The notes: generated by a model not told the origin, from the letters alone. Positions 24-27,250 are shown, counted from the first letter of the stretch. The stretch: DNA of 32,000 nucleotides from Propionibacterium ruminifibrarum (GCF_900289195.1 NZ_OMOH01000004.1:1-32000), one strand, 5' to 3'. Numbers and translations are program-made.

Positions 24-2597
24 TCACGGAATCTCATCCATGTGAGATCGATTTCGCAGCGGATCCTGGGGTATGTAATTATCCGGGTTGCGGTAGTCCT
101 CCAAGAACAGCCTTTCATTCTCGATGGGGTCAGGACTGTACTCGTGATTGAGATACTTGTCTCTCATCTTAGCATACTCTTTACCGGGTTTGTGTCCCAT
201 GTCCCATCCAGAATCCATGTCATTGTGCGGTTCACCCGGCTCCCACTCGACAACCCTCTCTTGGTTATTTATGTCCCTGACGATTACCTCTCCATCCTCA
301 TTCCTAGCAGCCTCGAAGACGCGTTCTTCCTGGCTCGGTATTCCGTTGGCTGGATCTCCCGGGTCGTATGAGGGACGCGAGTTCGCATACGGCATTCGAG
401 TCCCGTTCGAATCATACCCATACGAGTTTGGCTCACCGGTAGGTGGAAGCCCATTCGGGTACCCATTCCCACGGTTCTCAGCAACCCATGTTTCAGAGGA
501 GGGATCCCAGCGCATCTCCCAGCCACGACGACCAGCAGAATCCTCAGAAAGCAATGGCTCTCCGGTGCGATGATCCAACGGGTTCCCATCTTTATCACGC
601 GGAGCATCCTCTAGAGCCTGCCTCACATCGTCAGCAGTATACGGGCGCGGCGCATCCTTCGCCGGAACAGTTTCCGTCGCGTGCTTTCTTTCCGCGCTGC
701 CAGATTCACCATCACCATCTACCCCATTACCAGCCGAGTCGCTTGACTCGCTCCGACGAGCCGTGACATCGCCATCGCCATGCGACCCGCTACTGGAAGA
801 ACCAGCAGCATCGCCATGACCACCAGTCGCATCCGGCGCCGGAGCAGACGATCCAGCCTCAGGCGCGCTATTATCAACCGCAGCACGCTTGGCCGCGCCC
901 GTCTCAGGAGCATCATTGGCACCCACCGAATTGCCGGCCTCGGCACGCTGCGGCACCTCGGAGGAACTTCTAGCACTCTCCACGCCAGAACCAGACTGAT
1001 TTGACGGATCATCCCCACCATGAGCAGTCTTGGCAGAGCTAACAGATTCTGATCCGCCCAGGTCTGGAGCGTTGTGGTGCGATGTATCTGGCAACACTGA
1101 ATGGTCAGCAGAACTACCAACGCCGTTGAGATCTGGCCCGCCGTCACCAAGAGACGGAGCATCAACACCACCAGCGCCGCCACCTCTAAGATCAGAGGTT
1201 ACACCCCCCATATCGGGAACAGAATGAGTTTTCCCCAAATCGTGGAGAAGCATGTTATCGACCGCGGTCGATGCTCGAGCAACCACGCCAAGACTCTCAC
1301 TTGCCCGGGAAGCTACTCCTGCGCCTCTGACACCAATATCTGCAGCAGCTTTCGCGACATATGAGCCACCGGGGAGAATGGTGTCTGCGATAATTCCGGC
1401 TGTTCTCGCACCATAACGCGTAAATCTCGCACCCCTGCTGACATCAGCCCCGACCGCACCCGCCTTGCCAAGATCGGCACTCGGAATGAAAAAGGAGCCG
1501 ACGTTTATCACCGTGGAAGACGCTGCCCTGACGGGATCATCTCGCCACGCCGCAAGAGGTTTGTCCGAGTTGGGGTAGATGTTGAAGAGACCACCAAAAG
1601 CATCCTCCAAGGGCGCAACCATTGTCTCATACCAAGCGAAAACTTGATTCTCTTCAGCGAGCTTCCCCAGAGGATCTACACCGATCTCCTTACCGATCAC
1701 TTTAAGAGGATAGCTGATCGAAACACCAGCGAAGCCGCACGAAAGAAGAAAAGCAAGCCCAAGTTTGCCCACACCAAGGACTGACTGACCTGCGTGTGAA
1801 AAATCTCCCAAGTCACCTGTACGCGGGTTGTAACTAAGAAATGAGAGGCCACCATTTACAATGCCAGCGACACCATCCCAGATACCCATCGCTACTGACT
1901 GGCCGCAATTACTCGCCTCTCGTTCGGTTCTCTGCCCCCAAGGGAGGGCTTGCCCGTCTAACTCAGCCCCAGTAATATCTGTCGGAAGTTGTTCGATGTC
2001 ATCCGAAACCAGCCCGTTGATGGTATTTGCGCACTCATTCTCGGCATTGATGATCTTTGCGACTTGATCATTGATCTTGGCGATCCAGTGGTTATTCTCG
2101 TCAGAGTACCTTTCAGGCGCACTGAACCAATCGGCATGAATTGTTTGCTTTTTCATTTGCGATAACGAAGAGTTGGGTATGTATTCCACAACAGTCTTTG
2201 TCGTGTCTTCGCCCGCCAATGCCTTTTTACGAAATTCTCGCACGCCTTCACGCACGGCATCAAGATCGGGCTTTATCACATCAAGCGCATCGGCAAAATC
2301 ATCAAGTGCGTCAGCTGCACTACTGAGCGCTGTTTCCACCCCATCGGCAGAACTCGACGCAGGATCAAGCAGGTTGTATACCGTTGATGACTCTGGCGCC
2401 TCATAAACACCAGGTGATTTGAGTCTTGCCCACTCTGTCACTATGTCATCGACATTGTCACCAACAGCTGTGCTCATGTTGCGCAACTCAGTCGCGGCAT
2501 CCGTCACGTAACTTGTATCGATTTTGGGGATCATTTCCGGGTCAACCAAACCGGAAGCGCCGCCCCCGTCCATACTCATGGTCATCGATGCTGCCAT
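24..2597 (-). CDS. 857-aa putative T7SS-exported polymorphic toxin. It has an N-terminal helical domain, Gly-rich hydrophobic segments, a long Ser/Gly/Asp/Ala-rich disordered linker, and a C-terminal GH-E-type HNH/EndoVII nuclease-like domain.
   Basis: Long ORF that is the last gene of the minus-strand operon headed by the WXG100-like genes. A GAGGGG Shine-Dalgarno lies ~8 nt upstream of the ATG at 2597. The C-terminal sequence WDMGHKPGKEY...YRNPDNYIPQDPLRNRSHMDE matches my recollection of the GH-E toxin nuclease signature (GH..G.E, then N..N.SH). No signal peptide is apparent. Confidence 0.75.
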   Translation of the reverse strand: MAASMTMSMDGGGASGLVDPEMIPKIDTSYVTDAATELRNMSTAVGDNVDDIVTEWARLKSPGVYEAPESSTVYNLLDPASSSADGVETALSSAADALDDFADALDVIKPDLDAVREGVREFRKKALAGEDTTKTVVEYIPNSSLSQMKKQTIHADWFSAPERYSDENNHWIAKINDQVAKIINAENECANTINGLVSDDIEQLPTDITGAELDGQALPWGQRTEREASNCGQSVAMGIWDGVAGIVNGGLSFLSYNPRTGDLGDFSHAGQSVLGVGKLGLAFLLSCGFAGVSISYPLKVIGKEIGVDPLGKLAEENQVFAWYETMVAPLEDAFGGLFNIYPNSDKPLAAWRDDPVRAASSTVINVGSFFIPSADLGKAGAVGADVSRGARFTRYGARTAGIIADTILPGGSYVAKAAADIGVRGAGVASRASESLGVVARASTAVDNMLLHDLGKTHSVPDMGGVTSDLRGGGAGGVDAPSLGDGGPDLNGVGSSADHSVLPDTSHHNAPDLGGSESVSSAKTAHGGDDPSNQSGSGVESARSSSEVPQRAEAGNSVGANDAPETGAAKRAAVDNSAPEAGSSAPAPDATGGHGDAAGSSSSGSHGDGDVTARRSESSDSAGNGVDGDGESGSAERKHATETVPAKDAPRPYTADDVRQALEDAPRDKDGNPLDHRTGEPLLSEDSAGRRGWEMRWDPSSETWVAENRGNGYPNGLPPTGEPNSYGYDSNGTRMPYANSRPSYDPGDPANGIPSQEERVFEAARNEDGEVIVRDINNQERVVEWEPGEPHNDMDSGWDMGHKPGKEYAKMRDKYLNHEYSPDPIENERLFLEDYRNPDNYIPQDPLRNRSHMDEIP

Positions 2598-2635
2598 TAC
2601 TAGATCCCCTCGAGATCATCGATTCTTACTGGAAG

Positions 2636-3028
2636 TTACTCGCCTAGAACGTTGTTCTCTTTGAAGAAAGTGAAATCGCCGGTCTGAGCCGCAGTGATCA
2701 TCTCAGACTGGAAGGTGGCGGCCATCTCCTCATTGCCTTGGTTGTACGCCACGGTCGCGCTCGCCACCCCCCAGGCGCCTGCTTGTATGTAGTTGCCAAT
2801 CGAGGTCAGATCATCACCCAGCGAGGCGATAAGATTATCCACCGCCGTGGGCACCGAACCCATCACCGAGTTGACGCCGGCCGACCCCTCGGTCGCCCCG
2901 CCTGTCAGGCAGTTCTCCAGATCGGTGAACTCGTCCTCACTCAGACCTTCTTGGAACTGATCCGCGTAGGTCGTTACGTTATCCAGGACGACCTTCACCT
3001 GCGCGCCGTCGATCTTCCAGCTACTCAT
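2636..3028 (-). CDS. 130-aa small, mostly helical protein of unknown function. Candidate toxin partner or targeting factor.
   Basis: ORF placed 4 nt after the upstream gene's stop and 38 nt before the toxin start. Its composition is Ala/Gln/Glu-rich and helical, with an internal AGAWGVA segment reminiscent of WXG100 hairpins. The function is inferred from position only. Confidence 0.6.
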   Translation of the reverse strand: MSSWKIDGAQVKVVLDNVTTYADQFQEGLSEDEFTDLENCLTGGATEGSAGVNSVMGSVPTAVDNLIASLGDDLTSIGNYIQAGAWGVASATVAYNQGNEEMAATFQSEMITAAQTGDFTFFKENNVLGE

Positions 3029-3032
3029 CGTG

Positions 3033-3362
3033 TCACTTCCGTTCCATCACGCGTCCGCCCAGCCTGCGCGCCAGCTCGGCGCAGATCACCCGCCCAGTGC
3101 GGGAATCGGCATAGGGCAATGCCATGTCGGTCCACACCTGCCCGGCCCGGACGTCCTCGAACGTCCCCGTGGCCTCTCGAGCCACGGCCAGGGCCCTGGG
3201 TGGCCACCAAGTGAGGATGCCGTCGTTGTTGTGGTCGCGGAGCAGACAGGACCCGTCGACCAGTTCATGCAGCTCTCCGCCAGGGATGATCGCGGTGATA
3301 GCCGCCTCCCAGTCCTGCCAGGTGGGTGCGGTGCCGCTCAGCAGGACGAGTTCAACGGCCAT
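3033..3362 (-). CDS. 109-aa hypothetical protein. Alternatively, the C-terminal part of a frameshifted ~465-aa protein.
   Basis: High third-position GC in this frame and a non-repetitive sequence (MAVELVLLSGTAPTWQDWEAAITAI...). The ATG at 3362 lies inside the end of the upstream ORF, giving an 11-nt overlap (ATGGCCGTTGA). The 203-aa track ORF is open upstream of this ATG, but its N-terminal 94 aa look like Arg/Ser/Cys-rich noise. Confidence 0.5.
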   Translation of the reverse strand: MAVELVLLSGTAPTWQDWEAAITAIIPGGELHELVDGSCLLRDHNNDGILTWWPPRALAVAREATGTFEDVRAGQVWTDMALPYADSRTGRVICAELARRLGGRVMERK

Positions 3363-4428
3363 TGCCAACCCCGTTTCCGTCCAGCCCGAGGGCATGGCTG
3401 AGGCCGGGCAGTCCGACACTGCGGAACACGTCGCAGAGCTGCCTCCACGGCGCTTCATCGCCGAAGAAGGGCACGAGCACGGTCGGAAGCAGCGAGCGGC
3501 CCAGACGCATCCCGCCGTGCCGGGTGACGATCTCGTCGACGTCGAGACCAGACTCCTTGATCGCCCACGGGCCCGCCATGATGCCCAGCGGGTACTCGGG
3601 TCGCCGCGAGCGCACGTGCTGGTAGCCGTCCGGGTCATCGTCAATGAGCGTTGTCATGGCGAACACCGGGGTGAACGCCTCGTGAACCCTCCGCAGCACG
3701 GCCGTGGACAGCTCGACGGCCCGTTCGACGGCCTCGCCGTAGGAGCCAATCGGCACGGTGCCGCACAGGTGCTCGCTCAAGCCAGAGGCGCCGCGCTCGT
3801 ACTGGAGCGTCGCCACCGCGCCGGGCGCGGGCGCCGAGAGCCGGTAGATCGGCGTGCTCGGCATGTGGCGGCGGGCGTCCATGGTGAGCGCCCGCCGATC
3901 CCACGGCCGGCTGAGCGGCTCGGTGAAACCCAGCAGATCGGGGGCCGGGGCCCCAAGGGTCGCGAAGACGAGTTCGGCCAGGGAACCCACCCGCAGCTCC
4001 TCGGTCGCCCGGTGGTGCACCATGATGTCGAAGCCGACGGCTCCGGCCGCCTGCGGGTCGACACCGGGCATGTCGAGGCGGGGCAGCCGGCTCATCGCGA
4101 CGGGATCGTCGAGCTGATCCAGCGTGTCCAGGTCGCGGCCGGTCAGGGCGTCCATCATGTGCCCGTCGGCGCGCATGGTGACCCACGAACCCATTGAGGC
4201 CGCCATCTCGAAGCCGAGGAGGCGGCTCAGGGCGGCGTCCTCGTCGGTGACGAGGACGGGGCGCAGCTGCTGCATGCGGGCGAGCAGCAGGAACTGCCCC
4301 AGCGCGGGGCTCAGGTCGAGGCGCTTGCGGTAGCTGTGGTAGACCACCGCGTTCGTCGCGACCCCATCGATAACGGGCAGCTGGCCGAACCGAAGCGGCG
4401 CCTGCCCGCTTGTCACTGTTGTGCTCAC
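3352..4428 (-). CDS. 358-aa conserved-looking hypothetical protein associated with the T7SS substrate genes.
   Basis: Balanced amino-acid composition. Its GTG start overlaps the stop of the upstream WXG100-like gene (GTGA at 4425-4428). The antisense ORF 3124..4197 is Arg/Gly/Pro-rich and judged spurious. I recognise no catalytic motif. Confidence 0.65.
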   Translation of the reverse strand: MSTTVTSGQAPLRFGQLPVIDGVATNAVVYHSYRKRLDLSPALGQFLLLARMQQLRPVLVTDEDAALSRLLGFEMAASMGSWVTMRADGHMMDALTGRDLDTLDQLDDPVAMSRLPRLDMPGVDPQAAGAVGFDIMVHHRATEELRVGSLAELVFATLGAPAPDLLGFTEPLSRPWDRRALTMDARRHMPSTPIYRLSAPAPGAVATLQYERGASGLSEHLCGTVPIGSYGEAVERAVELSTAVLRRVHEAFTPVFAMTTLIDDDPDGYQHVRSRRPEYPLGIMAGPWAIKESGLDVDEIVTRHGGMRLGRSLLPTVLVPFFGDEAPWRQLCDVFRSVGLPGLSHALGLDGNGVGNGR

Positions 4429-4751
4429 AGGTGGACGGCGCTGCCGGCTCGTTGGAGGGCGGTCTGGGCGACCTGGTCGGACTCCTCCATCGCCCCGATC
4501 AGCTGAGCGATGATCTGACGCACCTCATGCCCGGCCTTGTTCCAGTTGTCCTCCAACTGGTGCATCTGGTCGGACACTCCCTCTGCCTCGTAGTTCGCCA
4601 TGAGCGACTTCACATCGGCGTCGTGCGAGTCCAGCACCGCAAGCAGCTGGGCGGCCGCGGCCCTCATGTTCGCCCCAGCAGTCTGGGAGTCGGCGATGTT
4701 GTAGTCATTGCGATCGGCGTCGTTCACATTGTCAAAACCTGAGTAATCCAT
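4425..4751 (-). CDS. WXG100-family-like small helical T7SS substrate (~108 aa) with a deviant WXG motif.
   Basis: ~100-aa Ala/Gln/Glu/Asp-rich two-helix-type sequence. The central turn reads NWNKAG rather than the canonical W-x-G. A GGAG lies 10 nt upstream of the ATG at 4751; the track ORF starts 9 nt earlier at a GTG. The gene is paired with a second similar gene and sits next to eccC/eccD. Confidence 0.6.
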   Translation of the reverse strand: MDYSGFDNVNDADRNDYNIADSQTAGANMRAAAAQLLAVLDSHDADVKSLMANYEAEGVSDQMHQLEDNWNKAGHEVRQIIAQLIGAMEESDQVAQTALQRAGSAVHL

Positions 4752-4836
4752 GACAGGCACACTCCAAAAAACAGAACGGATTGGGAATCAAAGACGAAAC
4801 GAGGAAGACCACGAAAGGCAGACCCGAGGGAAGCGG

Positions 4837-5175
4837 TCAGACGTTGCGGGCCACCGCGGCGTCGAAGTTCGCGCCGGCCTGGCTGCTGCTGAACACCTCG
4901 GTGGCCTGCTCGGCGTGCTGCTGGAACGCCCTGCCCTGCTCGTTTGTCGAGTTGAGGATGCCCTGCAGCGAGGTGTTGAGCATGTCCGCCACCGCATTCG
5001 CGTTCTGCTTGAACGAGTTGAACGACGCCTTCACCGGCCCGTTCATGCTCTTGGCGACCGGCTCTGCCGCCTGCACGAACGCCAGCACCATCGCCCCCAG
5101 GTCACTGCTCGACGCGTCGGTCTTCTTCGCATGGTCCGACAACGCCGTGCCCTGCATCGCGAACTTCATACCCAT
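4837..5175 (-). CDS. WXG100-family-like small helical T7SS substrate (112 aa) lacking Trp in the hairpin turn.
   Basis: ~110-aa helical, Ala/Gln/Asn/Ser-rich protein that is the first gene of the minus-strand operon. A GAAGGAGG Shine-Dalgarno lies ~12 nt upstream of the ATG at 5175. The turn region reads SMNGPVKASF instead of W-x-G. Confidence 0.55.
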   Translation of the reverse strand: MGMKFAMQGTALSDHAKKTDASSSDLGAMVLAFVQAAEPVAKSMNGPVKASFNSFKQNANAVADMLNTSLQGILNSTNEQGRAFQQHAEQATEVFSSSQAGANFDAAVARNV

Positions 5176-5497
5176 GACCGGTCAAGGCCTCCTTCATGCT
5201 GACCCCGGAGCACACGAACCACCGGGGCGGGGTGGTCAGACGTGGACCGAAAAAACGGCCGCAAACGTGCAGTACGGTACCGATCAGGCATCCCCTTGAG
5301 CAGCACATTCCGACACCGACACGCCCCCAGAAAACCCCCACAGACACCCCTAAGGGACAGGCGAACCCCTCGTCACACGGCGTTTCACCGTGACTGGCGG
5401 TGAACCCCCGGCTTGGGATGCAGACCGGCGGCCGGTTCGTCTCCCATCAGCGGTTAGGCTGAAAGACGTCTCAGCCAGCCCCCCGGAAGAGGTCATC
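5176..5497. promoter_or_regulatory. Divergent promoter/leader region between the substrate/toxin operon (minus strand) and the FHA-ecc operon (plus strand).
   Basis: A 322-bp non-coding gap between divergently oriented first genes, each with a good Shine-Dalgarno. It contains an imperfect inverted repeat, GTCACaCGG-N7-CCGTGAC, around 5372-5394. I could not identify -10/-35 elements with confidence. Confidence 0.4.
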
Positions 5498-6385
5498 ATG
5501 CCAGCCACCGTCCCCACCATCGTGTGTGGGCGCTGTGGCACGCCCTTCGTCGGCACGGCGGTCTGCGGCAGCTGCGGTCACCCGACCACCGCCACCTGGC
5601 CCTTCGACACCGAGGAGTGGCGCACGCGGCTGCGCCCGGCAGACCAGGAGCGCCTCATCGCGGCGCTCGCCCTCGACGCCCTGTGTCTGCTCGTCCCGGT
5701 GGTGGCCCTGGTCGTCGCCGCGGCGCGCGGCGGCTGGCACCCGTGGGCCATCGTCCTGGTCGCCGTGGCGCTCCTCGGGGCGCTCGCCGGCCTCGGCCTG
5801 TGGTGTCTGCGCGACTGGGGGCGTTTCGTCGGTGGGGCGGCCCTGCGGCTGCGCACGCTCGACAGCCTCACCGGGCTGGCGCCGTCCCGGTTCGTGGCCC
5901 CGCGGCTGCTGCTCGTCGCCGACGCACGGACCGAGGACCCCCTCCTCGTCACGGTCCCCCACCTGGGCGATCTGAGGGCCATCGCGAAACCGCGCTCGCT
6001 GCCGACCCCCGCCACCACGCCCCCGGCGCAGCCCGCGGCGCGCCCCCCGGGCTGCTTCGTGGCCACCAGCCAGAAACTGACACCGCTCGTCGGCCCGCTG
6101 CTCGTCGGCCGCTACCCGGTGCGCCAGATCGGCGCCGAGCCGCTGCCCACCCTCGAACTGCCCGACTTCACGCGCACGATGAGCCGGGCGCACGTCCTGC
6201 TCGAGAACGAGAACGGGCGTCTGTGGGCCACCGACCTGGACTCCGGCAACGGCACCCGCATCCGGCGCCCGGGCGAGCAGCCGGTGGCGATGGTGCCGCG
6301 CATGCGGATGCCGATCATCCCCGGCACGCGCATCGACTGCGGCGAGCAGAGCCTGTTCATCACCGACGGCAGGAGGGTCGCATGA
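5498..6385 (+). CDS. Membrane protein with an N-terminal CxxC...CxxC zinc ribbon, a central RDD-like two-TM domain and a C-terminal FHA domain.
   Basis: The N-terminus reads IVCGRCGTPFVGTAVCGSCGH. Hydrophobic helices follow (LALDALCLLVPVVALVV, WAIVLVAVALLGALAGLGLW). The C-terminal FHA signature is LLVGRYP...SRAHVLLENENGRLWATDLDSGNGTRI. A GGAAGAGG Shine-Dalgarno precedes the ATG at 5498. Confidence 0.75.
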   Translation: MPATVPTIVCGRCGTPFVGTAVCGSCGHPTTATWPFDTEEWRTRLRPADQERLIAALALDALCLLVPVVALVVAAARGGWHPWAIVLVAVALLGALAGLGLWCLRDWGRFVGGAALRLRTLDSLTGLAPSRFVAPRLLLVADARTEDPLLVTVPHLGDLRAIAKPRSLPTPATTPPAQPAARPPGCFVATSQKLTPLVGPLLVGRYPVRQIGAEPLPTLELPDFTRTMSRAHVLLENENGRLWATDLDSGNGTRIRRPGEQPVAMVPRMRMPIIPGTRIDCGEQSLFITDGRRVA

Positions 6386-6843
6386 TCGACCGCGACCGCA
6401 TCCTCGTCGAGGCCACCCGCACCCGCCGCCAGCGGCTGCTGTCGGCCCTCACCTTCGGCACCCTGCCCGACCGGCGCACCGTCACCAACAACGTCGGCCG
6501 GTTCGTCGGCTCGGCGGTGCTGGCCGCGGTGATCGGCGCCGGCTGCCTCGGCGGCTCGTTCGTCGTGAACACCCTGCAGGAGCAGAAGATGTCGACCACC
6601 TCGGCGAACTACCGATCGGCGATCCAGGGCACCTCCACCCTCGACGAGGGCACCAGCGTCGACCCCCGCACCGGCTACCCGATCGACCCCGAGACGGGCT
6701 GGGCCATGGCCCCCGACGGCCTCGCCTACGACACGAGGAGCGGATGGCAGGTGGACACCCGCACCCGCAGACTCATCGACCCCACCACGAAGTACCAGGT
6801 GGACCCCGAGACGCTGCAGGTCTACCCGAAGGAGCGCACCTGA
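6382..6843 (+). CDS. 153-aa single-pass membrane protein with an extracytoplasmic region of short DPxTG/W-x-VD-type repeats. Unknown T7SS-associated component.
   Basis: The ATG overlaps the FHA gene stop (ATGA at 6382-6385). A basic N-terminus is followed by one TM helix (FVGSAVLAAVIGAGCLGGSFVV). The C-terminal region reads DPRTGYPIDPETGWAMAPDGLAYDTRSGWQVDTRTRRLIDPTTKYQVDPETLQVYP. Confidence 0.6.
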   Translation: MIDRDRILVEATRTRRQRLLSALTFGTLPDRRTVTNNVGRFVGSAVLAAVIGAGCLGGSFVVNTLQEQKMSTTSANYRSAIQGTSTLDEGTSVDPRTGYPIDPETGWAMAPDGLAYDTRSGWQVDTRTRRLIDPTTKYQVDPETLQVYPKERT

Positions 6844-8156
6844 TGGACTACACGCGGGTGACGGTGCACGGATCGCAGCACCGCGGCGATCTCGTCGTGC
6901 CCAGCTCGGAACCGCTCGTCACGGTCCTGCCCCGGCTGCTCGAGATGCTGTCCGAGACCAGCCCCGGGGGCGCCGGCGTGGCACTGACCACCTCCGAGGG
7001 CATCCAGCTCGACACGGAGCGTTCCCTCGCCGAGCAGCAGGTGCGCGACGGGCAGCTGCTGCTCGTCCGCCCCGCCGACCAGACGCCCCCGCCCCCGCAG
7101 GTCTCCGACCTGGTCGGGGCCACGGCCGACCGTCGCAGCTCGTCCCGCGGACGCTGGTCGCTCGACACGGCCCGCCTGTGCGTCGTGCTGCTGGAGGCGC
7201 CGCTGGCCGGGCTGGCCACCTGGCAGGCCGGTTCGGCGCTGCCCGCCGCCGCGGTCACCGCCGCCGTCGTCCTCGTACTGCTGGCCGTCGCCGCCTGCCG
7301 CGCCTGGCGGGCCTGGCCCGCGACGGCGGTCGTCTCGGCCGCAATCGGAGTCGCCGGGACGGTCGGGGCCGGCGCCGTCGCCGGGACCGACCTGTCCGGC
7401 GCCCACCCCGTCCTGGTGCCCGCCGCGACCGGTCTGGCCTGCGCCTGGCTCGTCGTCGCGCTGGCCCCCGGTCTCGCCGGCGGGCAGCGGCCGATGCTCG
7501 CCACGGGCGTGGTCGGAGCCGTCGGCTGCGCGGCGCTGCCGATCCTGCTGGCCCTGGGCATGGGCGTCACCGGGGTGGGCGCCGTCATCGCCACGGCCGC
7601 GGTCTGCGGGCTCGGGCTGGTGCCCGCCGCGGCCCTGTCGCTGTCGGGCCTGACCGAGCTCGAGGACGCGGCGATCGCCGGCAGGCCCCCGGCCCGCGGC
7701 ACCGCGCAGGAGGCCATCGACGGTTCGTTCCGCGCGATGACCGGGCTGACCCTGGCGCTGGCCGTGCTGGCCGCCGGCGGACTGTGCCTGCTCGTCGGAT
7801 CACACCCCTCGCAGTGGGGCTGGGGGCTGGCCTGCGCGCTGGGGATCGTCATCGTCTGCCGCACACGGTTCTTCCCGTTCACCGCACAGGTCGTCGCGCT
7901 GGCCGGTGCCCTCACCGCCCTGGTGGCGGTCCTGCTCGCCTGCACGCCGCTGGCCGGCCCGCTACGTGGCCTGGTCATCGCCGCCGTCGCCGCGGCACTC
8001 GCCCTCGTCCTGGTCAAACCGGTCCCCGAGCACACCGCGGCCCGGGTGCGCACCTGGGCGAACCTCGCCGAGCTGATCGCCGTCGTCGCCACCGTGCCGC
8101 TGCTGCTCGGCCACTTCGGCGTCTTCTCCGACCTGCTGGAGGTCTTCTCACGGTGA
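6843..8156 (+). CDS. eccD: Type VII secretion integral membrane protein EccD.
   Basis: The N-terminal ubiquitin-like (YukD-like) segment MDYTRVTVHGSQHRGDLVVPSSEPLVTVLPRLLEML is followed by roughly 11 hydrophobic helices over ~340 aa. The start overlaps the upstream stop (TGATG at 6841-6845). The gene lies adjacent to eccC. Confidence 0.85.
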   Translation: MDYTRVTVHGSQHRGDLVVPSSEPLVTVLPRLLEMLSETSPGGAGVALTTSEGIQLDTERSLAEQQVRDGQLLLVRPADQTPPPPQVSDLVGATADRRSSSRGRWSLDTARLCVVLLEAPLAGLATWQAGSALPAAAVTAAVVLVLLAVAACRAWRAWPATAVVSAAIGVAGTVGAGAVAGTDLSGAHPVLVPAATGLACAWLVVALAPGLAGGQRPMLATGVVGAVGCAALPILLALGMGVTGVGAVIATAAVCGLGLVPAAALSLSGLTELEDAAIAGRPPARGTAQEAIDGSFRAMTGLTLALAVLAAGGLCLLVGSHPSQWGWGLACALGIVIVCRTRFFPFTAQVVALAGALTALVAVLLACTPLAGPLRGLVIAAVAAALALVLVKPVPEHTAARVRTWANLAELIAVVATVPLLLGHFGVFSDLLEVFSR

Positions 8157-9019
8157 AGGCCCTCTCACTGCTCAGCTCAACGCCCGGGGCACGGCTCGAC
8201 TTCCTGCTCGACGCCGACCGGGCCCTGCACGGCGCCGTCCCCCTGGCCCGCCGCGTCGCCGTCGTGAGCGTGGACGGCGGGACCGGCTGCTCGACGATCG
8301 CCGCCGCGGTCGCCACCACGATGGCCGGCCGGCACCGGGGCCCGGTGGTCCTCGTGGACGCCGGCCGCAACGGCCCCGGCGCCGGCGTACGGGCCGGGCT
8401 CAGCGACGACGCCCGCCGGCTGGCCGACGAGGAACTGGCCGCGGCACGCGCCGGCGTCGAGGGCGACGAGCCGCGCCCGCCCACCACCCTGGCCGAGGCC
8501 ATGACCGGCCTGCCCCGCACGGCCTCCGGGCTGGCGTGCCTCGACTTGACGCGAGAAACGTTCCCGGGCTGTCTCGACCTGCGCGACTGGGCTGACAGGC
8601 TGGCACCCATCTCCCGGTTCCCGGACTTCGTCGTCACGGACTTCGGGGTGCGCGACCGTGACGAACTGAGCACGATCGCCGCGTCCAACCACGCCACCTG
8701 CCTCGTCGCCGGGGCCTCACGCGAACGCCTCACCCGGGCCATCGCCCAGGCCACCTGGCTCGAGGACGAGGGGCACGCGCCCCTGGTGTGCATCAACGAC
8801 ACCCGCGGCGGCGTCAGCAGACGACAGCTGCGCCTGCTCAGCCGCGCCCTGCCGCGCCCTGCCGTCCTCATGCCGCACGACCCGACGCGGCTCGGCGCGG
8901 ACCCGGCGCGCAGCACGGCCCTGAGCCAGCGCAGCCGCAACGCCGTCCTCGAACTGACCGCCTCCCTCATGACCGCCTGCCAGCAGACACCCGATGCCGG
9001 AGGGGGCATCGTCCCATGA
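8153..9019 (+). CDS. 288-aa ParA/MinD/CpaE-like (SIMIBI-fold) protein with a degenerate Walker A lacking the P-loop lysine.
   Basis: The GTG start overlaps the eccD stop (GTGA at 8153-8156). VAVVSVDGGTGCSTIAAAVA aligns with the deviant Walker A xKGGxGKT/ST but carries Cys in place of Lys. VVLVDAGRNGPG and DFVVTDFG resemble the switch and Walker B strands of MinD/ParA. The family assignment rests on motifs only. Confidence 0.55.
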   Translation: MKALSLLSSTPGARLDFLLDADRALHGAVPLARRVAVVSVDGGTGCSTIAAAVATTMAGRHRGPVVLVDAGRNGPGAGVRAGLSDDARRLADEELAAARAGVEGDEPRPPTTLAEAMTGLPRTASGLACLDLTRETFPGCLDLRDWADRLAPISRFPDFVVTDFGVRDRDELSTIAASNHATCLVAGASRERLTRAIAQATWLEDEGHAPLVCINDTRGGVSRRQLRLLSRALPRPAVLMPHDPTRLGADPARSTALSQRSRNAVLELTASLMTACQQTPDAGGGIVP

Positions 9020-12000
9020 GCCTGCGCATCATCCACCGCCCAGCCCGCGTCACCGAGCCGCTCACCCGGCCCGAGCCCCGCACGATCTCGTCCCCGCCGA
9101 GCGCCGGCGACGGGCCCAGCGGCGGCATGTCCACCCAGCTGCTGCTGCCCATGGTGGGGGCCCTCAGCTCGACACTCATGATGGTCGTCATGCGCAACGG
9201 CCAGCCGGTGTACATGCTCATCGCCGCCGTCGTCCTGCTCGTCGCCATCGTCAGCGGGGTGCTCATGACCTTCAGCAGCCGCGGGCAGGCCATCCGCCAG
9301 CGCGCCCACCAGCGCGAGCTCTACCTCGACTACCTGGAGGGCATGCACGCCGAACTGGACGAGCAGGTTCAGCAGGTGCGCGAGCAGGCGGTCGCCAGCT
9401 GCCCGACACCGGACGGCCTCATGTCGATCATCGTCGACCCGGCGCGGCTGTGGGAGCGGCGCATGGGCGACGCGGACTTCCTGTCCCTGCGGGTGGGCAC
9501 GGCCGACCTGCCGTGGATCAGGCTGACCATGAACGACGCCGAGTCGCCCATGAACCCGCCCGACCCGGTGCTGGCCGGCGAGGCCAGGCGGCTCATCGAC
9601 GGCCACCAGGTCATCGCGGGCATGCCCGTCCGCCTGCCCGCCGACGCCGCGGGCGACATCTCGGTCATCGGCGACCGCGCCGAGGTGCTCAACGCGGCAC
9701 GCACGCTGCTGTCCCAGGCCGCCGCCCTGCACTCGCCCGACGACCTGAAGATCGCGCTGGCCTGCCCGCCGTCGCGTATGGACGACTGGGCGGGCCTCGA
9801 CCAGCTGCCGCACATGGTCAACGCGCGCCTTCTCGACGGGCCCGTGCCGGCCCGCCGCGTCGCCCCGGACGTCGGCTCCCTGGCCCGCGTGCTGGGCGCC
9901 GAGTTGACCGACCGCGTCGAGCAGGCCGGCCTGAGCCGCCGCTCGATGACCGCCTCCCCGGTGCACACGCCCCGCATGCTCGTCGTCATGGACGAGTGGG
10001 GCTCCAACGCCAGCCCCCTGCCGCTGCCCGACAGCGCCTTCGGGCCGGCGGACGTGGGCATCACCGTCATCCACCTGCTGCAGGACCGGCTGCACGAGCC
10101 GAGCGACGTCTCGGCCCGTCTCGCCGTCGGCGAGGGCGGGGCGCGGCTTGAACTCCTCGGGCGCGAGCCGGCGACGATCGGCCCCATCGCCGTCGACCGC
10201 ACCAGCCAGGCCCGCATGACATCCCTGGTCCGTACCCTGTGCCCGCTGCGGCTGCGCCCCGAGGACCGCGTCGAGGAGCAGGAGACGCCGGTCATGAACG
10301 TCCGCCAGCTGCTCGGCATCGATTCGCCCGACGACATCAGCAAGGATGCCGCGTGGGCGCCGCGCTCGGCCGCGGACTTCCTGCGCGTGCCGATCGGCCT
10401 GGACGACCAGGGCTCCCCCGTGCTGCTCGACCTGAAGGAGAGCGCCCAGTTCGGCATGGGCCCGCACGGCATCTGCATCGGCGCCACCGGCTCGGGCAAG
10501 TCCGAGATGCTGCGCACCCTCGTCCTGGCCCTGGCCATGACGCACTCCCCCGAGGACCTGTCGATGATCCTCGTCGACTACAAGGGGGGCGCCGCCTTCT
10601 CGCCCTTCACCGACCTGCCGCACCTGGCCGGCCTCATCGACAACCTGGCCGACGACCCGCACCTGACCGAGCGCGCCCGCGCCAGCATCCAGGGGGAGGT
10701 CGTGCGCCGCCAGCAGATGCTCAAGGACGCCGGGCACCTGCCCTCCATCACGCACTACCGCGAGGCCCGCCGGCAGGGCGCCGACCTGCCGCCGATGCCG
10801 CACCTGTTCGTCGTCATCGACGAGTTCGGCGAACTGCTCACCGCTGAACCCGAGTTCAGCGAACTCTTCCTGCAGATCGGCCGCATCGGCAGGTCGATCG
10901 GCGTGCACCTGCTGCTGTCGAGCCAGCGCATCGAGTCCGGCAAGCTGCGCGGCCTGGACACCTACCTGTCGTACCGGCTGGGTCTGCGCACCTTCTCCGA
11001 GAGCGAGTCGCAGGTGGTCCTCGACACGAAGGACGCCTTCCACCTGCCGGCCGTGCCGGGGTACGGCTATCTGAAGGTCGACACCTCGGTGTACCGGCGC
11101 TTCCGGGCCGGCTACGTCTCGGGGCCGGTCGAGGAGGACGAGGTCGACACCGACGTGCAGGCCGAGTTCGCCGAGCCCTTCGCGCTGCCGCTCTACAACA
11201 CCATCGCCGCCGGCCGGACCAGCGGCGACGTCGAGGCGGCGCCCCAGCTCACCGAGCCCGAGGTCGGCCAGAGCCTGGTGGACGCCTGCGTCGCGCGCCT
11301 GCGGGACGACGCCCGCGCGGTGCGCCCGGTCTGGCTTCCGCCGCTGCCCGAACGCCTGACCCTCAACGACGTCCTCTCCCAGGACGAGCCCGACCCCGGA
11401 CTGTCCGCGGTGATCGGCCTCGTCGACGACCCCGCGCACCAGTCCCAGCAGCCGTGGCGGCTCAGCCTCACCACCAGCGGCGGCCATGTCGCGGTGATCG
11501 GCGCCCCCGGCTCGGGCCGCTCCACCTTCCTGCGCACCCTCACCGCCTCGCTGGCGCTGACGCACACCCCGCGGGAGGTCAGCGTCTACGGCATGGACCT
11601 GACCGGCGGCGGTCTGGCCCGCCTCGAGGGCTTCCCCCACGTCGGCGGCGTGGCCACCCGCGGCAGCCGCGACCGGCTGCGACGCCTCGTCGAGGAGCTC
11701 ACGGGCATGCTCACCCGGCGTGAGAGGCTCTTCCAGGAACGCGCCATCGAATCGATGGCGCACCTGCGCCACCTGCACGCCCAGGGCTCCCTGCCCGAGC
11801 TGCCGAGCGCCGACATCGTCGTCCTCGTCGACGGCTTCGGCCTGCTGCGCAACGAGTTCGAGGAGCTCTCCGACCAGGTCAACGACCTCATCGTGCGCGG
11901 CAGCAGCTACGGCCTCCACTTCGTCATCGCCCTCGGGCGCTGGAACGAGCTGCGCATCAACCAGCAGTCCCGGTTCGGCACCCGCCTGGAGTTCCGCCTC

Positions 12001-12972
12001 AACGACCCGACCGACTCGGTCATCGACCGCAAACTCTCGCAGACGATCGGCGCCGACCAGCGCGGCCGCATGCTCACCGACGACAAGCTGTTCGCCCAGC
12101 TGAGCCTGCCGGTGCTCGACGACGCGGCCGACGAGGACCTCGGCGACGCCCTGTCCGAACTGGCCAAGCGCGTCGCGGGCACCTGGGGAGGGCCGGCGGC
12201 GGCGCCCATCCGCCTGCTGCCGGTCGCGCTCGACCCCGCCCAGCTCACGCCCCCCGAGCAGGAACCCGACGCGGTGCCCTTCGGCGTGCGCCAGGACTCC
12301 ATGGAGGACGCCTTCTGGGAACTGCTCGACACCGACCAGCACCTGCTCGTCCTCGGGGACGCCCGCTGCGGCAAGTCCACCCTGCTGCGCACGTTGGCGC
12401 GGGGCCTCGTGACGAGGTTCAGCAGCGACGAGCTGGTCATCGCGGTCATGGACTCGCGCGGCACCGTCCCGGCCGCGATCCCCGAGGAGTACCTGGCCGG
12501 CCATGCCAAGAGCACCCGGGACGCCGCGGGGCTGGCCGCCTCGATCGCCAAGGAGCTGGAATCACGGACGGCGATGACCCCGGCCGAGCGCGCCAGGTCG
12601 CCGCGAGTGGTACTCATGGTCGACGACTACGACATCCTCAACGCCGGCGGCACCGAACCGCTGCACCCCATCGTCGCCTACCTGCCCTCGGCCAGGGATC
12701 TGGGCTTCAACGTCGTCCTCACCCGGACGGTGGCCGGGATCACCAGGGCCCTGTACACCGAGGCGATCCAGGGGCTGCGCGACACCGGCGGCACGACCTT
12801 CCTCATGTCCGGCGACCGCTCCGAGGGGCAGATCATGCCGCGCGTCTACGCGCAGACCATGCCGCCCGGCAGGGGCCAGCTGCTGCGCCGCGGGCAGCGC
12901 CCGGTCATCGTGCAGGCCGCGTGCGAGCCCGGTTCGGCCTCGGGCGACCGGCGGCACGAGGAGGTCGCATGA
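9016..12972 (+). CDS. eccC: Type VII secretion FtsK/SpoIIIE-family ATPase EccC (1318 aa; two N-terminal TM helices and three ATPase domains).
   Basis: The ATG overlaps the upstream stop (ATGA at 9016-9019). TM helices are LLLPMVGALSSTLMMVVM and VYMLIAAVVLLVAIVSGVLM. The three P-loops are GATGSGKSEMLRTL (with Walker B FVVIDEFGELL), GAPGSGRSTFLRTL and GDARCGKSTLLRTL. Length and architecture are typical of EccC. Confidence 0.95.
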   Translation: MSLRIIHRPARVTEPLTRPEPRTISSPPSAGDGPSGGMSTQLLLPMVGALSSTLMMVVMRNGQPVYMLIAAVVLLVAIVSGVLMTFSSRGQAIRQRAHQRELYLDYLEGMHAELDEQVQQVREQAVASCPTPDGLMSIIVDPARLWERRMGDADFLSLRVGTADLPWIRLTMNDAESPMNPPDPVLAGEARRLIDGHQVIAGMPVRLPADAAGDISVIGDRAEVLNAARTLLSQAAALHSPDDLKIALACPPSRMDDWAGLDQLPHMVNARLLDGPVPARRVAPDVGSLARVLGAELTDRVEQAGLSRRSMTASPVHTPRMLVVMDEWGSNASPLPLPDSAFGPADVGITVIHLLQDRLHEPSDVSARLAVGEGGARLELLGREPATIGPIAVDRTSQARMTSLVRTLCPLRLRPEDRVEEQETPVMNVRQLLGIDSPDDISKDAAWAPRSAADFLRVPIGLDDQGSPVLLDLKESAQFGMGPHGICIGATGSGKSEMLRTLVLALAMTHSPEDLSMILVDYKGGAAFSPFTDLPHLAGLIDNLADDPHLTERARASIQGEVVRRQQMLKDAGHLPSITHYREARRQGADLPPMPHLFVVIDEFGELLTAEPEFSELFLQIGRIGRSIGVHLLLSSQRIESGKLRGLDTYLSYRLGLRTFSESESQVVLDTKDAFHLPAVPGYGYLKVDTSVYRRFRAGYVSGPVEEDEVDTDVQAEFAEPFALPLYNTIAAGRTSGDVEAAPQLTEPEVGQSLVDACVARLRDDARAVRPVWLPPLPERLTLNDVLSQDEPDPGLSAVIGLVDDPAHQSQQPWRLSLTTSGGHVAVIGAPGSGRSTFLRTLTASLALTHTPREVSVYGMDLTGGGLARLEGFPHVGGVATRGSRDRLRRLVEELTGMLTRRERLFQERAIESMAHLRHLHAQGSLPELPSADIVVLVDGFGLLRNEFEELSDQVNDLIVRGSSYGLHFVIALGRWNELRINQQSRFGTRLEFRLNDPTDSVIDRKLSQTIGADQRGRMLTDDKLFAQLSLPVLDDAADEDLGDALSELAKRVAGTWGGPAAAPIRLLPVALDPAQLTPPEQEPDAVPFGVRQDSMEDAFWELLDTDQHLLVLGDARCGKSTLLRTLARGLVTRFSSDELVIAVMDSRGTVPAAIPEEYLAGHAKSTRDAAGLAASIAKELESRTAMTPAERARSPRVVLMVDDYDILNAGGTEPLHPIVAYLPSARDLGFNVVLTRTVAGITRALYTEAIQGLRDTGGTTFLMSGDRSEGQIMPRVYAQTMPPGRGQLLRRGQRPVIVQAACEPGSASGDRRHEEVA

Positions 12973-14054
12973 GCACCCAGTCACTCCTCGTGGCGGGCAC
13001 GGCCGGGGGTGCCGGGACGACCACCGTCGCCGCGCTCATCATCGCCCTGCTGCGCTCCCGCGGGATCCCCACGGCGGCCTGCGACCACTCGGGCGGCACG
13101 CTCGGCCAGCGCATCGCCCCGGACGAGCCGGCCGCGCAGGGCCCCGCCGGCAGCGAGATGCAGGTCACCGACGCGGGCCGCATGGAGGCCGCCATCGCCG
13201 ACGCCCTCGAAGTGCCCGAGTTCGCGCTGTGCCTGGTCAGCGGCCCCGGCATCGCCGCGGCACAGGCCACCCGGGCCGCCGTGGACGGCCTGCTCGAACG
13301 GTTCGGCCAGCAGATCCGCCGCCGCGTCCTCGTCGTGGTGTGCGCCTCCGCCGCCATGCGCCGGCGCGATGAGCAGCTGGCCCGCGAGATCCTGCGGCCC
13401 GACATCGAACTGCCCCGCTCCCCCGTCCTCGGATCCACCGGCCCCATCAGGCTCGACCTGGCCGACAAGGCGCTGGCGTCGGCGCTCGACAGGCTGGGCG
13501 GCCTGCTGGCCGGTTTCGTCCGGGTGCCGACCGCCCCGCAGGACGAGGACTGGCCCACCAGGATCACCAGGATGCCGGAGCCGGCCGGGGCCGAACCCGC
13601 CACGCCCCAATCCCCCGTGGCGGCTGCTGACAGCCCACCCACTCCGGCCGGGATCAGCGCCCCTGAACCCGCCGAGGCCACCGCCACCGGGCCAGGGGAC
13701 CGGGTCGTTGCGCCCCGTACCCTGGCCGCCATGGCAGCCGTTCCCGACGGCCCGCCCGAACCCGCTCCACGGAGCGCCGTCTCCCCGGCCCAGGTCCCCA
13801 TGGCCGTCGTCCCCGACGGCCCGCCCGAACCGACAGCGACCGGCCCGCTCCCCGCTCGTGGCGCCCCGCCTGACCCGACGCCCCTCACCGCCGCACCCAC
13901 GCGGGGCATCGCCCCAGAACCCGACGAGCCCCTCGAGCCCGAGGACGCCGCGCCGGCCCGGGCGGCCCGGCGGGCGCCCGAGGACCCCGGGGAGCAGGAC
14001 GAGCCCGTGCCCACCGGCCAAGAACGGGCTCGCCGCGGCGACGTGCTCGGTTAG
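12969..14054 (+). CDS. 361-aa protein with an N-terminal ParA/MinD-like domain (lysine-less P-loop) and a long Pro/Ala-rich C-terminal tail.
   Basis: The ATG overlaps the eccC stop (ATGA at 12969-12972). [24 protein letters not shown] matches GGxGxTT with Thr in place of Lys. The C-terminal ~170 aa are Pro/Ala/Glu-rich and contain a repeated VPDGPPEP unit; the DNA repeat cccgacggcccgcccgaacc occurs at about 13742 and 13811. Confidence 0.5.
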
Positions 14055-22348: not shown

Positions 22349-22834
22349 TCAGGAGGCGAGAACCTCGTCGAGCATGGCCTCCGCGCGGGCCTCCTCGACC
22401 TTCTCGGCCAGTGCGAGCTCGCTCACGAGAATCTGGCGGGCCTTGGCGAGCATGCGCTTCTCTCCGGCGGACAGTCCGCGGTCCTGCTCGCGACGCCACA
22501 GATCACGGACGACTTCGGCGACCTTGAGGACATTGCCCGAGTGGAGCTTCTCGACGTTGGCCTTGTAGCGACGCGACCAGTTCGCGGGCTCCTCGATCTG
22601 CGGGGCGCGCAGCACGGAGAAGACCTTCTCGAGACCGGCCTCGTCGACGACGTCGCGGACGCCGACCAGGTCGAGGTTGTCGGCGGGGACCCGGACGACC
22701 AGATCGGTCTGCCCGAGGATGCGCAGGACCAGGTAGAGCTTGTCCTCACCCTTCACCTTGCGCGTCTCAGTGGACTCGATGACAGCCGCCCCATGATTCG
22801 GGTAGACGACGGTCTCACCGATTTCATATGTCAT
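22349..22834 (-). CDS. carD: CarD-family RNA-polymerase-binding transcription regulator.
   Basis: [20 protein letters not shown]...LVLRI...VRVP (N-terminal Tudor-like/TRCF-RID domain) together with the C-terminal NWSRRYKAN...[13 protein letters not shown]. The first 43 codons of the track ORF are an unlikely upstream extension. Confidence 0.92.
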
Positions 22835-22959
22835 GTGAAACCCCTCTCCGAAGAGAGATTCTACCATACGAATTAATTGTCGACTCGGATATACATTCCC
22901 TGAGACGCAATGAAATCCGGAATCAGCGCGCAGCATTTTCGGGACTGCGCCCCGCGAAT

Positions 22960-23637
22960 TCATTCCTGGAATTTGTAGCCGAGGCCGCGCACGGTGATCA
23001 GCAGCTCGGGATGCGCTGGGTCCTGCTCGATCTTGCCGCGCAGTCGTTTCACGTGCACGTCAAGGGTTTTCGTGTCGCCCACGTAGTCAGAGCCCCATAT
23101 CTGGTCGATGAGCTGTGCCCGGGCCATGACGCGCCCGGCATTGCGGATGAGCACCTCGAGTAGATCGAACTCCTTGCGCGCGAGTTTCACCGATTCGCCC
23201 CGTACGGTGATCTCGTGGCGTTCGACATCCATGCGCACACCGCCGGATTCGAGCACATCGGGAACGGATTCCTCCTCCCGCCCCCGGCGCATGACGGCAT
23301 GGATTCTCGCCACCAGCTCGCGAGGGCTGAACGGTTTCGTCACGTAGTCATCGGCCCCCAGCTCCAGACCGCGGACCTTGTCGGCCTCGGAGTCCCTGGC
23401 GGTGACCATGATGATCGGTACGCCGGCACGCCGACGCAGGGCCCGGCAGACCTCCGCACCGCTCATCCCGGGCATCATGAGGTCGAGGAGCACCAGGTCG
23501 GCGCCGTTCGCATCGAACTCGGCCAGCCCGCTGGTCCCGTCGGAGGCCTGGGAGACCTCGTAGCCCTCACGGGCGAGCATGAAGGCCATGGCCTCGCGGT
23601 AGGACTGTTCGTCCTCGATGATCAGGATCCTCGTCAT
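22960..23637 (-). CDS. regX3: OmpR-family response regulator, RegX3/PhoP-like (phosphate regulon).
   Basis: Collinear with my recollection of M. tuberculosis RegX3 over nearly the whole length, for example [40 protein letters not shown] and [30 protein letters not shown]. The ATG overlaps the kinase stop (ATGA at 23634-23637). Confidence 0.9.
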
Positions 23638-27177: not shown

Positions 27178-27250
27178 GACGCCAAAGTTACAACGAAAAA
27201 CCGTTTTCATTGGAACTTCGCACCGAGCATGTCACGTACGTTGGAAGTTC
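27174..27250. repeat. Direct repeat copy 2 (~77 bp). It contains a degenerate version of the palindrome (27183-27220) and spans the Fic start codon and 5' leader.
   Basis: caaagttacaacgaaaaaccgttttcattggaacttcgcaccgagcatgtcacgtacgttggaagttc aligns with 25693-25760. The shared ccatgacg upstream shows a 2-nt indel between copies. Confidence 0.8.

Follow-up and report, generated by a model that had tools for sequence, protein, structure and literature searches.

A probable type VII secretion toxin operon in Propionibacterium ruminifibrarum with toxin-linked and system-linked candidate partner genes

Introduction

How is a large toxin brought to a type VII secretion system (T7SS) in an actinobacterium outside the mycobacteria, and which of the small genes beside it take part? 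The question is raised by a 32,000-nucleotide stretch of the genome of Propionibacterium ruminifibrarum (GCF_900289195.1 NZ_OMOH01000004.1:1-32000), the whole of which is here called the window. Six minus-strand genes at its beginning (positions 24-5175) encode two WXG100-like proteins, three middle proteins of 358, 109 and 130 amino acids (aa) and a predicted toxin of 857 aa, and they lie back to back with an operon that includes eccD and eccC. Export of toxins by T7SS is well worked out in Bacillota, where LXG toxins and Lap partners are known, and has only recently been shown in mycobacteria, for the Eat toxins and their Tap partners, and in Actinomycetaceae. The operon described here is, on balance, probably the substrate arm of an EccC/EccD-type T7SS in which the 130-aa protein is linked to the toxin and the 358-aa and 109-aa proteins are linked to the secretion system.

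The operon and its Esx-like pair

The six genes, all on the minus strand, are named g1 to g6. The first, g1 (4837-5175), encodes an EsxB-like WXG100-family protein of 112 aa and is preceded at a distance of 12 nucleotides (nt) by GAAGGAGG. It is followed by g2 (4425-4751), which encodes an ESAT-6-like protein of 108 aa from its ATG, by g3 (3352-4428), with a GTG start and a 358-aa product of the DUF6177 family, and by g4 (3033-3362), the 109-aa product of which, P109, belongs to an unnamed family of ~110-aa proteins. The DUF6507 family protein of 130 aa is encoded by g5 (2636-3028), and g6 (24-2597) is predicted to encode a polymorphic T7SS toxin of 857 aa. The GTG start of g3 lies over the stop of g2 in a GTGA overlap at 4428-4425, g3 and g4 overlap by 11 nt (3362-3352), and gaps of 4 nt (3032-3029) and 38 nt (2635-2598) separate g4 from g5 and g5 from g6.

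An earlier interpretation of this DNA, made from the sequence alone and called here the sequence-only reading, had given the open reading frames (ORFs) and these junctions in the same way. Its 76-nt gap between g1 and g2 was inconsistent with a g2 product of 108 aa: a gap of 76 nt fits a GTG at 4760 and a protein of 111 aa, whereas the 108-aa protein starts from the ATG at 4751, with GGAG 10 nt upstream, and the gap is then 85 nt. The same reading placed a T7SS-linked substrate and toxin operon in a non-mycobacterial actinobacterium, divergent from eccD and eccC, and in this it was right. The DUF6177 protein is 88% identical to that of Propionibacterium australiense and 86% to that of P. acidifaciens, and the opposite operon starts at 5390 (+).

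All six genes have same-order homologues on other contigs (E 1e-8 to 1e-200), the tight spacing recurs in relatives, and g1-g4 match the host in their G+C content at third codon positions (GC3, 0.82-0.94); the six ORFs are therefore not chance products. Long antisense or off-frame ORFs, for example one of 357 aa opposite g3 (3124-4197, +) and one of 1496 aa opposite eccC, were dismissed as high-GC artefacts.

The g1 protein matched the Pfam WXG100 profile (PF06013) with E 6.8e-4 and 20.3 bits, under the cut-off of 27.3, and TIGR03930 with E 1.4e-3. In the alignment its turn reads M-N-G instead of W-x-G, and F-N-G in the Curtobacterium relatives; a C-terminal NFDAA tail is conserved, and g1 orthologues are the first operon gene in all complete loci. 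The g2 protein matched the NCBIfam ESAT6_3 profile with E 1.3e-20 and 73.4 bits, under the cut-off of 100, and its orthologues carry a precomputed annotation as PF28026 ESAT6-like. Its turn is W-N-K-A-G (alignment A7), so that the canonical W-x-G is missing from both WXG100-like proteins, as had been noticed from the sequence. A profile of g2 gave a weak full-length alignment to M. tuberculosis ESAT-6 (E 0.27) among structures of the PDB. Together g1 and g2 would form an EsxB/EsxA-like WXG100 pair.

The three middle proteins had been left without any known domain and were proposed as export adaptors or chaperones of an unrecognised type. Searches with profile hidden Markov models (HMMs) assign the 358-aa protein to DUF6177 and the 130-aa protein to DUF6507, in both cases above the Pfam cut-off. 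Two of the three are thus already catalogued, if in families of unknown function, and the earlier statement stands for P109, which has no Pfam family.

Two gene layouts and the behaviour of the middle genes

Only similarity to DUF6177 or P109 was used to fetch related loci, which were mapped by HMM and phmmer searches; they are designated by numbers with the prefix L. Two layouts were found. Layout 1 has the order [WXG]–ESAT6-like–DUF6177–P109–DUF6507–toxin with junctions of 0-11 nt, and is present in the window, in L001-L008, in P. australiense (L010), in P. acidifaciens (L011) and in the distant metagenomic loci L017-L020, in which P109 is 28-32% identical. A metagenome scan with a narrower alignment yielded one new locus. 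Layout 2 was found in Curtobacterium (L009, L012-L014, L016). Here the order FHA–DUF6177–p153–EccD–ParA–EccC–P109–ParA-like diverges from WXG–ESAT6-like–DUF6507–toxin, and both DUF6177 and P109 are thereby part of the apparatus operon. The Curtobacterium P109 homologues match the HMM over their full length (E 2e-13 to 2e-11), and in L009 the P109 gene starts inside the last eccC codons and overlaps the eccC stop. In Promicromonospora (L015) and in a lineage of 79% GC (L021, L022) DUF6177 lies between the FHA gene and eccD, and it is the only one of the two families seen in the apparatus operon of these bacteria. Since DUF6177 and P109 are found in either operon across the two layouts, they follow the secretion system.

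The degree of conservation differed along the operon. DUF6177 remained 74-92% and P109 64-93% identical while the toxin C-terminus switched family and the toxin N-terminus fell to 39-63%. When pairwise identities from five Propionibacterium-type loci were correlated, r was 0.93 for g3 and g4, 0.89 for g5 and toxin residues 1-225, and 0.11 for g3 and g5; these values come from five related taxa and ten non-independent pairs and are indicative only. At that strength the co-variation agrees with the synteny, and indicates that g5 and g6 are an exchangeable unit, with g1-g4 going along with the system. The window and L001 become less and less identical along the operon (98, 96, 87, 78, 64, 50 and 39%). 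GC3 is 0.90-0.97 in the apparatus genes and 0.82-0.94 in g1-g4, and then 0.76 in g5 and 0.47-0.57 in g6, where the toxin genes of relatives have ~0.77. The g5-g6 cassette (24-3028) looks like a recent import or replacement.

These observations bear directly on the view, taken in the sequence-only reading, that the three middle proteins form a single class of adaptors for the toxin. Put as a rival explanation, DUF6177, P109 and DUF6507 would all be dedicated partners of this one toxin in a single pre-secretion complex, comparable to Lap1/Lap2 or to EsxB/C/D–EsaD. All three genes are translationally coupled directly upstream of the toxin, in an order that is repeated in L017-L020, and toxins of the Bacillota-type T7SS, the T7SSb, can reportedly need three small partners (PMC10653861). 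We nevertheless regard such a joint complex as unlikely, because exchange of the toxin and DUF6507 leaves DUF6177 and P109 conserved, and because the Curtobacterium genes for these two belong to the apparatus operon, at a distance of several kb from the toxin. Neither of them is small and helical, both being predicted as α/β proteins.

Layout 2 could also be taken to mean that DUF6177 and P109 regulate the machine and are not chaperones. With the FHA protein they could, for instance, gate the EccC ATPase or switch between early (Esx) and late (toxin) substrates. In this layout the FHA gene is immediately followed by that of DUF6177, and P109 is translationally coupled to eccC, and in Schaalia an FHA output protein controls the secretion of a subset of Esx substrates (PMC13622651). 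However, no enzymatic or signalling domain was found in DUF6177 or P109, the MoxR/vWA/kinase genes of the Esr type are missing from the window, and the recurring position, after the esx genes and before DUF6507–toxin, agrees at least equally with substrate handling. A purely regulatory part for the two proteins is accordingly improbable.

A further possibility is that DUF6177 and P109 are functionally unrelated passengers of these operons. Neither family has an assigned function, and the library of papers that was searched contained no mention of P109, or of DUF6177 and DUF6507 by name or Pfam accession. On the other side, every locus recovered with these proteins alone was linked to T7SS genes, over two or more orders and a number of unplaced lineages, and the linkage survives the rearrangement between two operons; mere passengers are hardly credible.

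The toxin and its family

The 857-aa protein had been read as a toxin, which is upheld by a match of its residues 794-853 (39-218, -) to the GH-E HNH/EndoVII nuclease domain of Pfam (PF14410, E 1.7e-9, 38.6 bits against a cut-off of 25); a predicted nuclease tip is also suggested by the GH…E signature visible in GWDMGHKPGKEY. Three further regions were distinguished on the minus strand. Residues 1-225 (1923-2597) are a putative helical trafficking domain and residues 226-440 (1278-1922) a conserved, Gly-rich and moderately hydrophobic region, both seen in alignment A6. By composition, residues 441-640 (678-1277) are a low-complexity linker rich in Gly, Ser and Asp, with fractions of 0.18 G and 0.17 S over residues 451-640.

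The N-terminal ~440 aa are conserved in both layouts, with E values of 1e-16 to 1e-22 against the Curtobacterium proteins and those of L017 and L018. Relatives have a W-x-G in the head at approximately residue 45-60, and the corresponding residues are W56-A-R in the window and W-Q-P in Curtobacterium. Seven residues after this motif follows Y-x-x-P-E, which is Y65-E-A-P-E69 in the window. W56, Y65 and P68 are invariant in alignment A6, and an invariant P-W-G is found at residues 219-221, before the Gly-rich region. Kyte–Doolittle hydrophobicity over 19 residues (KD19) peaks at 1.72 in residues 278-293 of the window protein. A segment with KD19 of at least 1.5 was found only in the Propionibacterium clade and L018, and the claim of a conserved transmembrane helix was dropped, as hydrophobicity of transmembrane type is present in some lineages only. 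Comparisons with hhalign gave no significant match between the toxin N-terminus and the g1, g2 or g5 families.

At the C-terminus the family members differ: GH-E in the window, Ntox15 in L001, L005, L006 and L010, TNT in L009 and a lipase-like GHSLGG sequence in L015. A shared N-terminus, variable tips, and small ORFs or orphan immunity-type genes downstream in relatives together characterise the family as polymorphic. The g6 product would then be a polymorphic interbacterial toxin in which a ~440-aa N-terminal region, composed of a WxG-type helical head and a Gly-rich segment, carries an exchangeable tip, and this tip would here be a GH-E HNH/EndoVII DNase.

Several features of the relatives' toxin loci were observed in passing. 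Two paralogous ORFs of ~157 aa are present downstream of the Ntox15 toxins in L001 (6171-9144) and L006 (8462-12922) and are likely immunity genes; behind them come orphan T6SS_Tdi1_C/GAD-like, Imm33 and ankyrin genes, all of lower GC, as an immunity island. On the Curtobacterium-like contig L009 (3196-3852) a stand-alone TNT-domain ORF of 218 aa is separated by a few kb from the full TNT toxin; it may be an orphan tip available for exchange by recombination. The toxin orthologue of P. acidifaciens (L011:11880-14390, 835 aa) has a low-complexity end without a recognisable toxin domain and may be truncated or frameshifted.

DUF6507, the toxin-linked protein

The g5 protein matched PF20117 (DUF6507) with E 2.4e-14 and 54.4 bits against a cut-off of 25, and all nine DUF6507 orthologues tested match the same family. 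Wherever a locus contains both, DUF6507 is encoded directly upstream of the toxin-family gene. On L019 (1731-2428) DDE transposase genes were found after DUF6507 in the place of the toxin gene, which has apparently been replaced or disrupted there by an insertion sequence.

Near its C-terminus the protein contains the motif F119-T-F-F-K-E124 (2657-2674, -; alignments A4 and g5.aln). Its relatives have F-x-x-F-[DE], that is FxxxD/E, which was found in 11 of 13 orthologues. FxxxD of Lap1 is needed for export of LXG toxins, and the counterpart motif in the T7SSa is YxxxD/E (PMC10801868). From its co-variation with the toxin N-terminus and the FxxxD/E-like motif at its C-terminus, DUF6507 is probably, by role, a toxin-specific targeting factor of the Lap/Tap type. 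As the toxin's cognate factor it would pair with the N-terminal head and supply the export motif, in parallel to Lap1 for LXG toxins and to the Tap proteins for the mycobacterial Eat toxins. Of the three middle proteins proposed earlier as partners of the toxin, it is the 130-aa protein for which this proposal found support, in its place next to the toxin on the upstream side, its co-variation and its FxxxD/E-like motif.

DUF6177 and P109, the system-linked proteins

The g3 protein matched PF19674 (DUF6177) with E 2.1e-62 and 211.6 bits against a cut-off of 25, over profile positions 2-328 of 330. An AlphaFold2 model from a 27-sequence alignment, with a predicted local distance difference test score (pLDDT) of 73 and a predicted template-modelling score (pTM) of 0.64, shows a two-lobed α/β protein. 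The protein lacks a transmembrane segment, since its maximum KD19 is only 1.28, and P109 has none either. A tblastn search of plasmids with DUF6177 gave no match.

P109 belongs to a family for which an exhaustive HMMER search returned 31 representative matches, approximately 22 of them 107-115 aa long and 28-38% identical. It has no match in Pfam or NCBIfam, and none of the 24 family members tested has a Pfam domain. The AlphaFold2 model (pLDDT 87.5, pTM 0.80) is a compact β-α-β-β-β-α-β-α-β sandwich, for which Foldseek found no convincing match in the PDB (best E 3.8e-3, template-modelling score at most 0.47). Resemblances to the ZipA C-terminal domain, the spermine synthase N-domain and KA1 were set aside as those of generic α/β sandwiches, within the same limit of score. 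P109 and DUF6177 are unrelated to each other by hhalign. Profiles of DUF6177, DUF6507, P109, the toxin N-terminus and g2 found nothing significant in sequence searches of the PDB.

For the DUF6177 model the top Foldseek matches were phosphagen kinases (E ~2e-4); with template-modelling scores of 0.16-0.19 and a root-mean-square deviation of ~15 Å these are local matches of the 3Di alphabet and were rejected. A search of a library of viral folds gave no match. The sole geometrically plausible match, and a weak lead, was 7drg (probability 1.00, template-modelling score 0.37, 278 columns), a protein of 361 aa against the 358 aa of DUF6177. This entry is the DUF3396 protein PA0821/TsiV, a type VI secretion (T6SS) immunity protein (PMC9635880).

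The match invites the explanation that DUF6177 is an immunity-type protein directed against the conserved, possibly membrane-active part of the toxin family, and the similar length of the two proteins would agree with it. A template-modelling score of 0.37 on a model of pLDDT 73 is weak, however, and there is no sequence similarity. The gene lies on the upstream and not the downstream side of the toxin, shows no variation with the toxin domain, and forms part of the apparatus operon in layout 2. The toxins of relatives are followed by separate small ORFs, which are the immunity genes to be expected. On account of this conservation pattern and of layout 2 an immunity function for DUF6177 is very unlikely.

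Both proteins are probably soluble α/β accessory factors at the level of the system: they follow the system and not the toxin. In mycobacteria the ESX locus encodes a soluble, system-specific chaperone, EspG, which recognises a domain common to the PE/PPE substrates. Most likely, DUF6177 and P109 would be an EspG-like pair, a cytosolic chaperone or receptor specific to the system, that delivers the conserved region of the toxin family in an export-competent state to EccC. They would act on this conserved part or at EccC itself, with a fold that is not EspG-like.

A bolder version, less likely than not, is that DUF6177 and P109 are the obligatory cytoplasmic core of a distinct actinobacterial T7SS subtype and serve as the substrate receptor that docks WxG-headed toxins, each with its DUF6507, onto EccC. 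Such a subtype would consist of EccC, a YukD-containing EccD, the FHA membrane protein, p153 and two ParA-like proteins, would do without EccB, EccE, MycP and EspG, and would be present in Propionibacteriales, Micrococcales and related lineages. If true, it would be a third solution to substrate recognition by T7SS beside EspG with PE/PPE and Lap with LXG.

Points that weigh against the proposed division

A number of observations weigh against the explanation of the operon as a substrate arm with toxin-linked g5 and system-linked g3 and g4. With regard to DUF6507, the motif in the window has K at +4 and the acidic residue, E, at +5, rather than D or E at +4. The g5 protein and eight orthologues match only DUF6507 and none of the Lap families in Pfam (Lap1/DUF3130, Lap2/DUF3958, Lap3-Lap4/DUF5344, DUF5082), and a Chou-Fasman propensity profile was uninformative. 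The sole link to WXG100 proteins is an hhalign comparison with the g1 family, at 54% probability and E 1.2e-4. The toxin of the window has W-A-R rather than WxG in its head, and neither the LXG nor the WXG100 profile recognises the N-terminus of the toxin; for LXG (PF04740) there was no match of the window toxin at E ≤1, or of the N-terminal 450 aa and two relatives at E ≤0.1. As the toxin gene stops at position 24, the cognate immunity gene is outside the window.

On the side of the system, the DUF6177 model is unlike EspG, and its nearest plausible fold is that of a T6SS immunity protein. The sample covers approximately 23 loci from a few orders and the genome scan seven loci, short of a co-occurrence census; the contigs of L017-L020 are too short to reach eccC, and the narrow set of taxa behind the co-variation counts here as well.

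The apparatus operon and its surroundings

The divergent operon starts with a gene for a zinc-ribbon/transmembrane/FHA protein (5390-6385, +; Pfam FHA), the true start of which may lie downstream of 5390, the orthologue in L005 having 304 aa. In this protein a zinc-ribbon of the form CxxC…CxxC is accompanied by a region of strong hydrophobicity (KD 2.66), and the FHA domain at the C-terminus scores just over the Pfam cut-off. The protein resembles the Esx-linked FHA output proteins termed EsrG in a 2026 preprint. Then follow p153, for a 153-aa protein with a single transmembrane segment (6382-6843, +), eccD with a YukD domain (6843-8156, +; EccD 73.3 bits, YukD 54.5 bits), a ParA-like gene (8153-9019, +), eccC (9016-12972, +; FtsK_SpoIIIE, 225.9 bits in three stretches) and a second ParA/CbiA-like gene (12969-14054, +), both ParA-like products having weak ParA/CbiA matches. 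This gene order is repeated in L005, L007 and L011. Of the core machinery of the T7SSa (ESX), EccC and EccD are encoded here, and the scanned window ORFs, like the gene tables of L005 and L009, gave no Pfam match to EccB, EccE or the subtilisin MycP. The two ParA/CbiA-like P-loop genes flank eccC with 4-nt overlaps to their neighbours, are kept in the Propionibacterium and Curtobacterium loci, and are not standard ESX components; the second protein has a long, Pro-rich disordered tail. Directly after the second ParA-like gene the cluster is adjoined by glyA, for serine hydroxymethyltransferase.

The intergenic region between the two operons (5176-5389, no strand assigned) contains a G-rich element, GGGGGTTTTCTGGGGG, at 5324-5339; its core, GGGTTTTCT, does not vary between the window, P. 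acidifaciens (L011) and L005. The element is flanked by direct repeats resembling T(A/G)GGGG(T/C)GTG and may be a shared operator or promoter of the divergent operons. Promoter and terminator scans of this region found sigma-70 and terminator sites no better than chance.

Further along the window a gene of the Fic/DOC family, with Fic_N and Fic domains, is located at 25924-27210 (-) in a patch of lower GC (0.64). Near it are CarD (22349-22963), an OmpR-type two-component pair (22960-24797), a DUF2207 membrane protein and a zinc metallopeptidase.

Comparison with known systems

The likeness of DUF6177, with or without P109, to EspG lies in the proposed role and is drawn from genomic behaviour only. 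Pfam and the PDB gave no sequence match to EspG, and no EspG structure was among the top 50 Foldseek matches listed for DUF6177. TsiV and its DUF3396 family provide the best geometric fold match to the DUF6177 model at a similar size, but the template-modelling score is only 0.37, sequence similarity is lacking, and the genomic behaviour of DUF6177 is opposite to that of an immunity gene. A possible analogue of P109 is found in the DUF4176/EsaE chaperones of T7SSb, which are likewise small and non-helical, are not secreted, are encoded next to toxins and stabilise the toxin before export (PMC12482557). DUF4176 proteins pair one-to-one with a toxin C-terminal domain and are encoded downstream of the toxin (PMC12482557), whereas P109 co-varies with DUF6177 and the system, is encoded upstream of the toxin or after eccC, and has no Pfam similarity to them.

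The Esr-regulated Esx system of Schaalia odontolytica with AesA and AesB (Wang et al. 2026 preprint, PMC13622651) is also actinobacterial and non-mycobacterial and has an EsxA/B pair and an FHA protein. Its helical-bundle substrates are encoded beside small hairpin partners and have variant export motifs (FxG). It differs in that the AesB C-terminus is disordered and Gly-rich instead of an enzymatic toxin, and in its Esr module, which has no counterpart in the window; DUF6177, P109 and DUF6507 are unmentioned in the preprint.

With the LXG toxins and Lap1-Lap4 of the T7SSb in Bacillota (PMC9600955, PMC10801868) the present locus shares a conserved N-terminal trafficking domain with a variable C-terminal toxin, a small partner gene directly upstream, an FxxxD-like motif and WXG100 genes in the locus. 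In contrast to these, the toxin has no LXG match, DUF6507 is outside the Lap families and the machine is of EccC/EccD type, not EssA/B/EsaA. A single small partner is linked to the toxin here, and the globular DUF6177 and P109 have no counterpart in sequence in the T7SSb.

The Eat toxins and Tap partners of mycobacterial ESX-4 (Benedict et al. 2026, PMC13444075) likewise represent an actinobacterial system of T7SSa type with one or two small upstream partners, in which HNH and TNT payloads occur on Tap/Eat loci across Actinomycetota. The Eat N-terminus is a helical bundle, and the head of the present toxin is, by its sequence, putatively helical as well; DUF6507 is likened to Tap by its proposed role. 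Eat loci as described lack genes like those of DUF6177 or P109, the conserved N-terminal region of the present toxin is much longer (~440 aa), and the present system has no detectable EccB, EccE or MycP nearby.

A T7SS polymorphic toxin with upstream partners is therefore a known arrangement, and since actinobacterial versions were published in 2026 (PMC13444075, PMC13622651), the general idea of an actinobacterial analogue of Lap, put forward from the sequence, had already appeared in print; the locus is an extension and not a new principle. No description was found of a link between the trio DUF6177, P109 and DUF6507 and an EccC/EccD system with no EccB, EccE or MycP nearby, of the split into system-linked and toxin-linked partners, or of the shared ~440-aa N-terminal domain of the toxins. 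What the locus offers beside the known systems is three candidates for substrate recognition, a matter that concerns the numerous actinobacterial T7SS without EccB, EccE, MycP and EspG, a context-based function for two Pfam families of unknown function, and a proposed division of labour between toxin-linked DUF6507 and the system-linked, globular DUF6177 and P109. The unannotated trafficking domain of ~440 aa can, in addition, be used to mine actinobacterial genomes for toxins.

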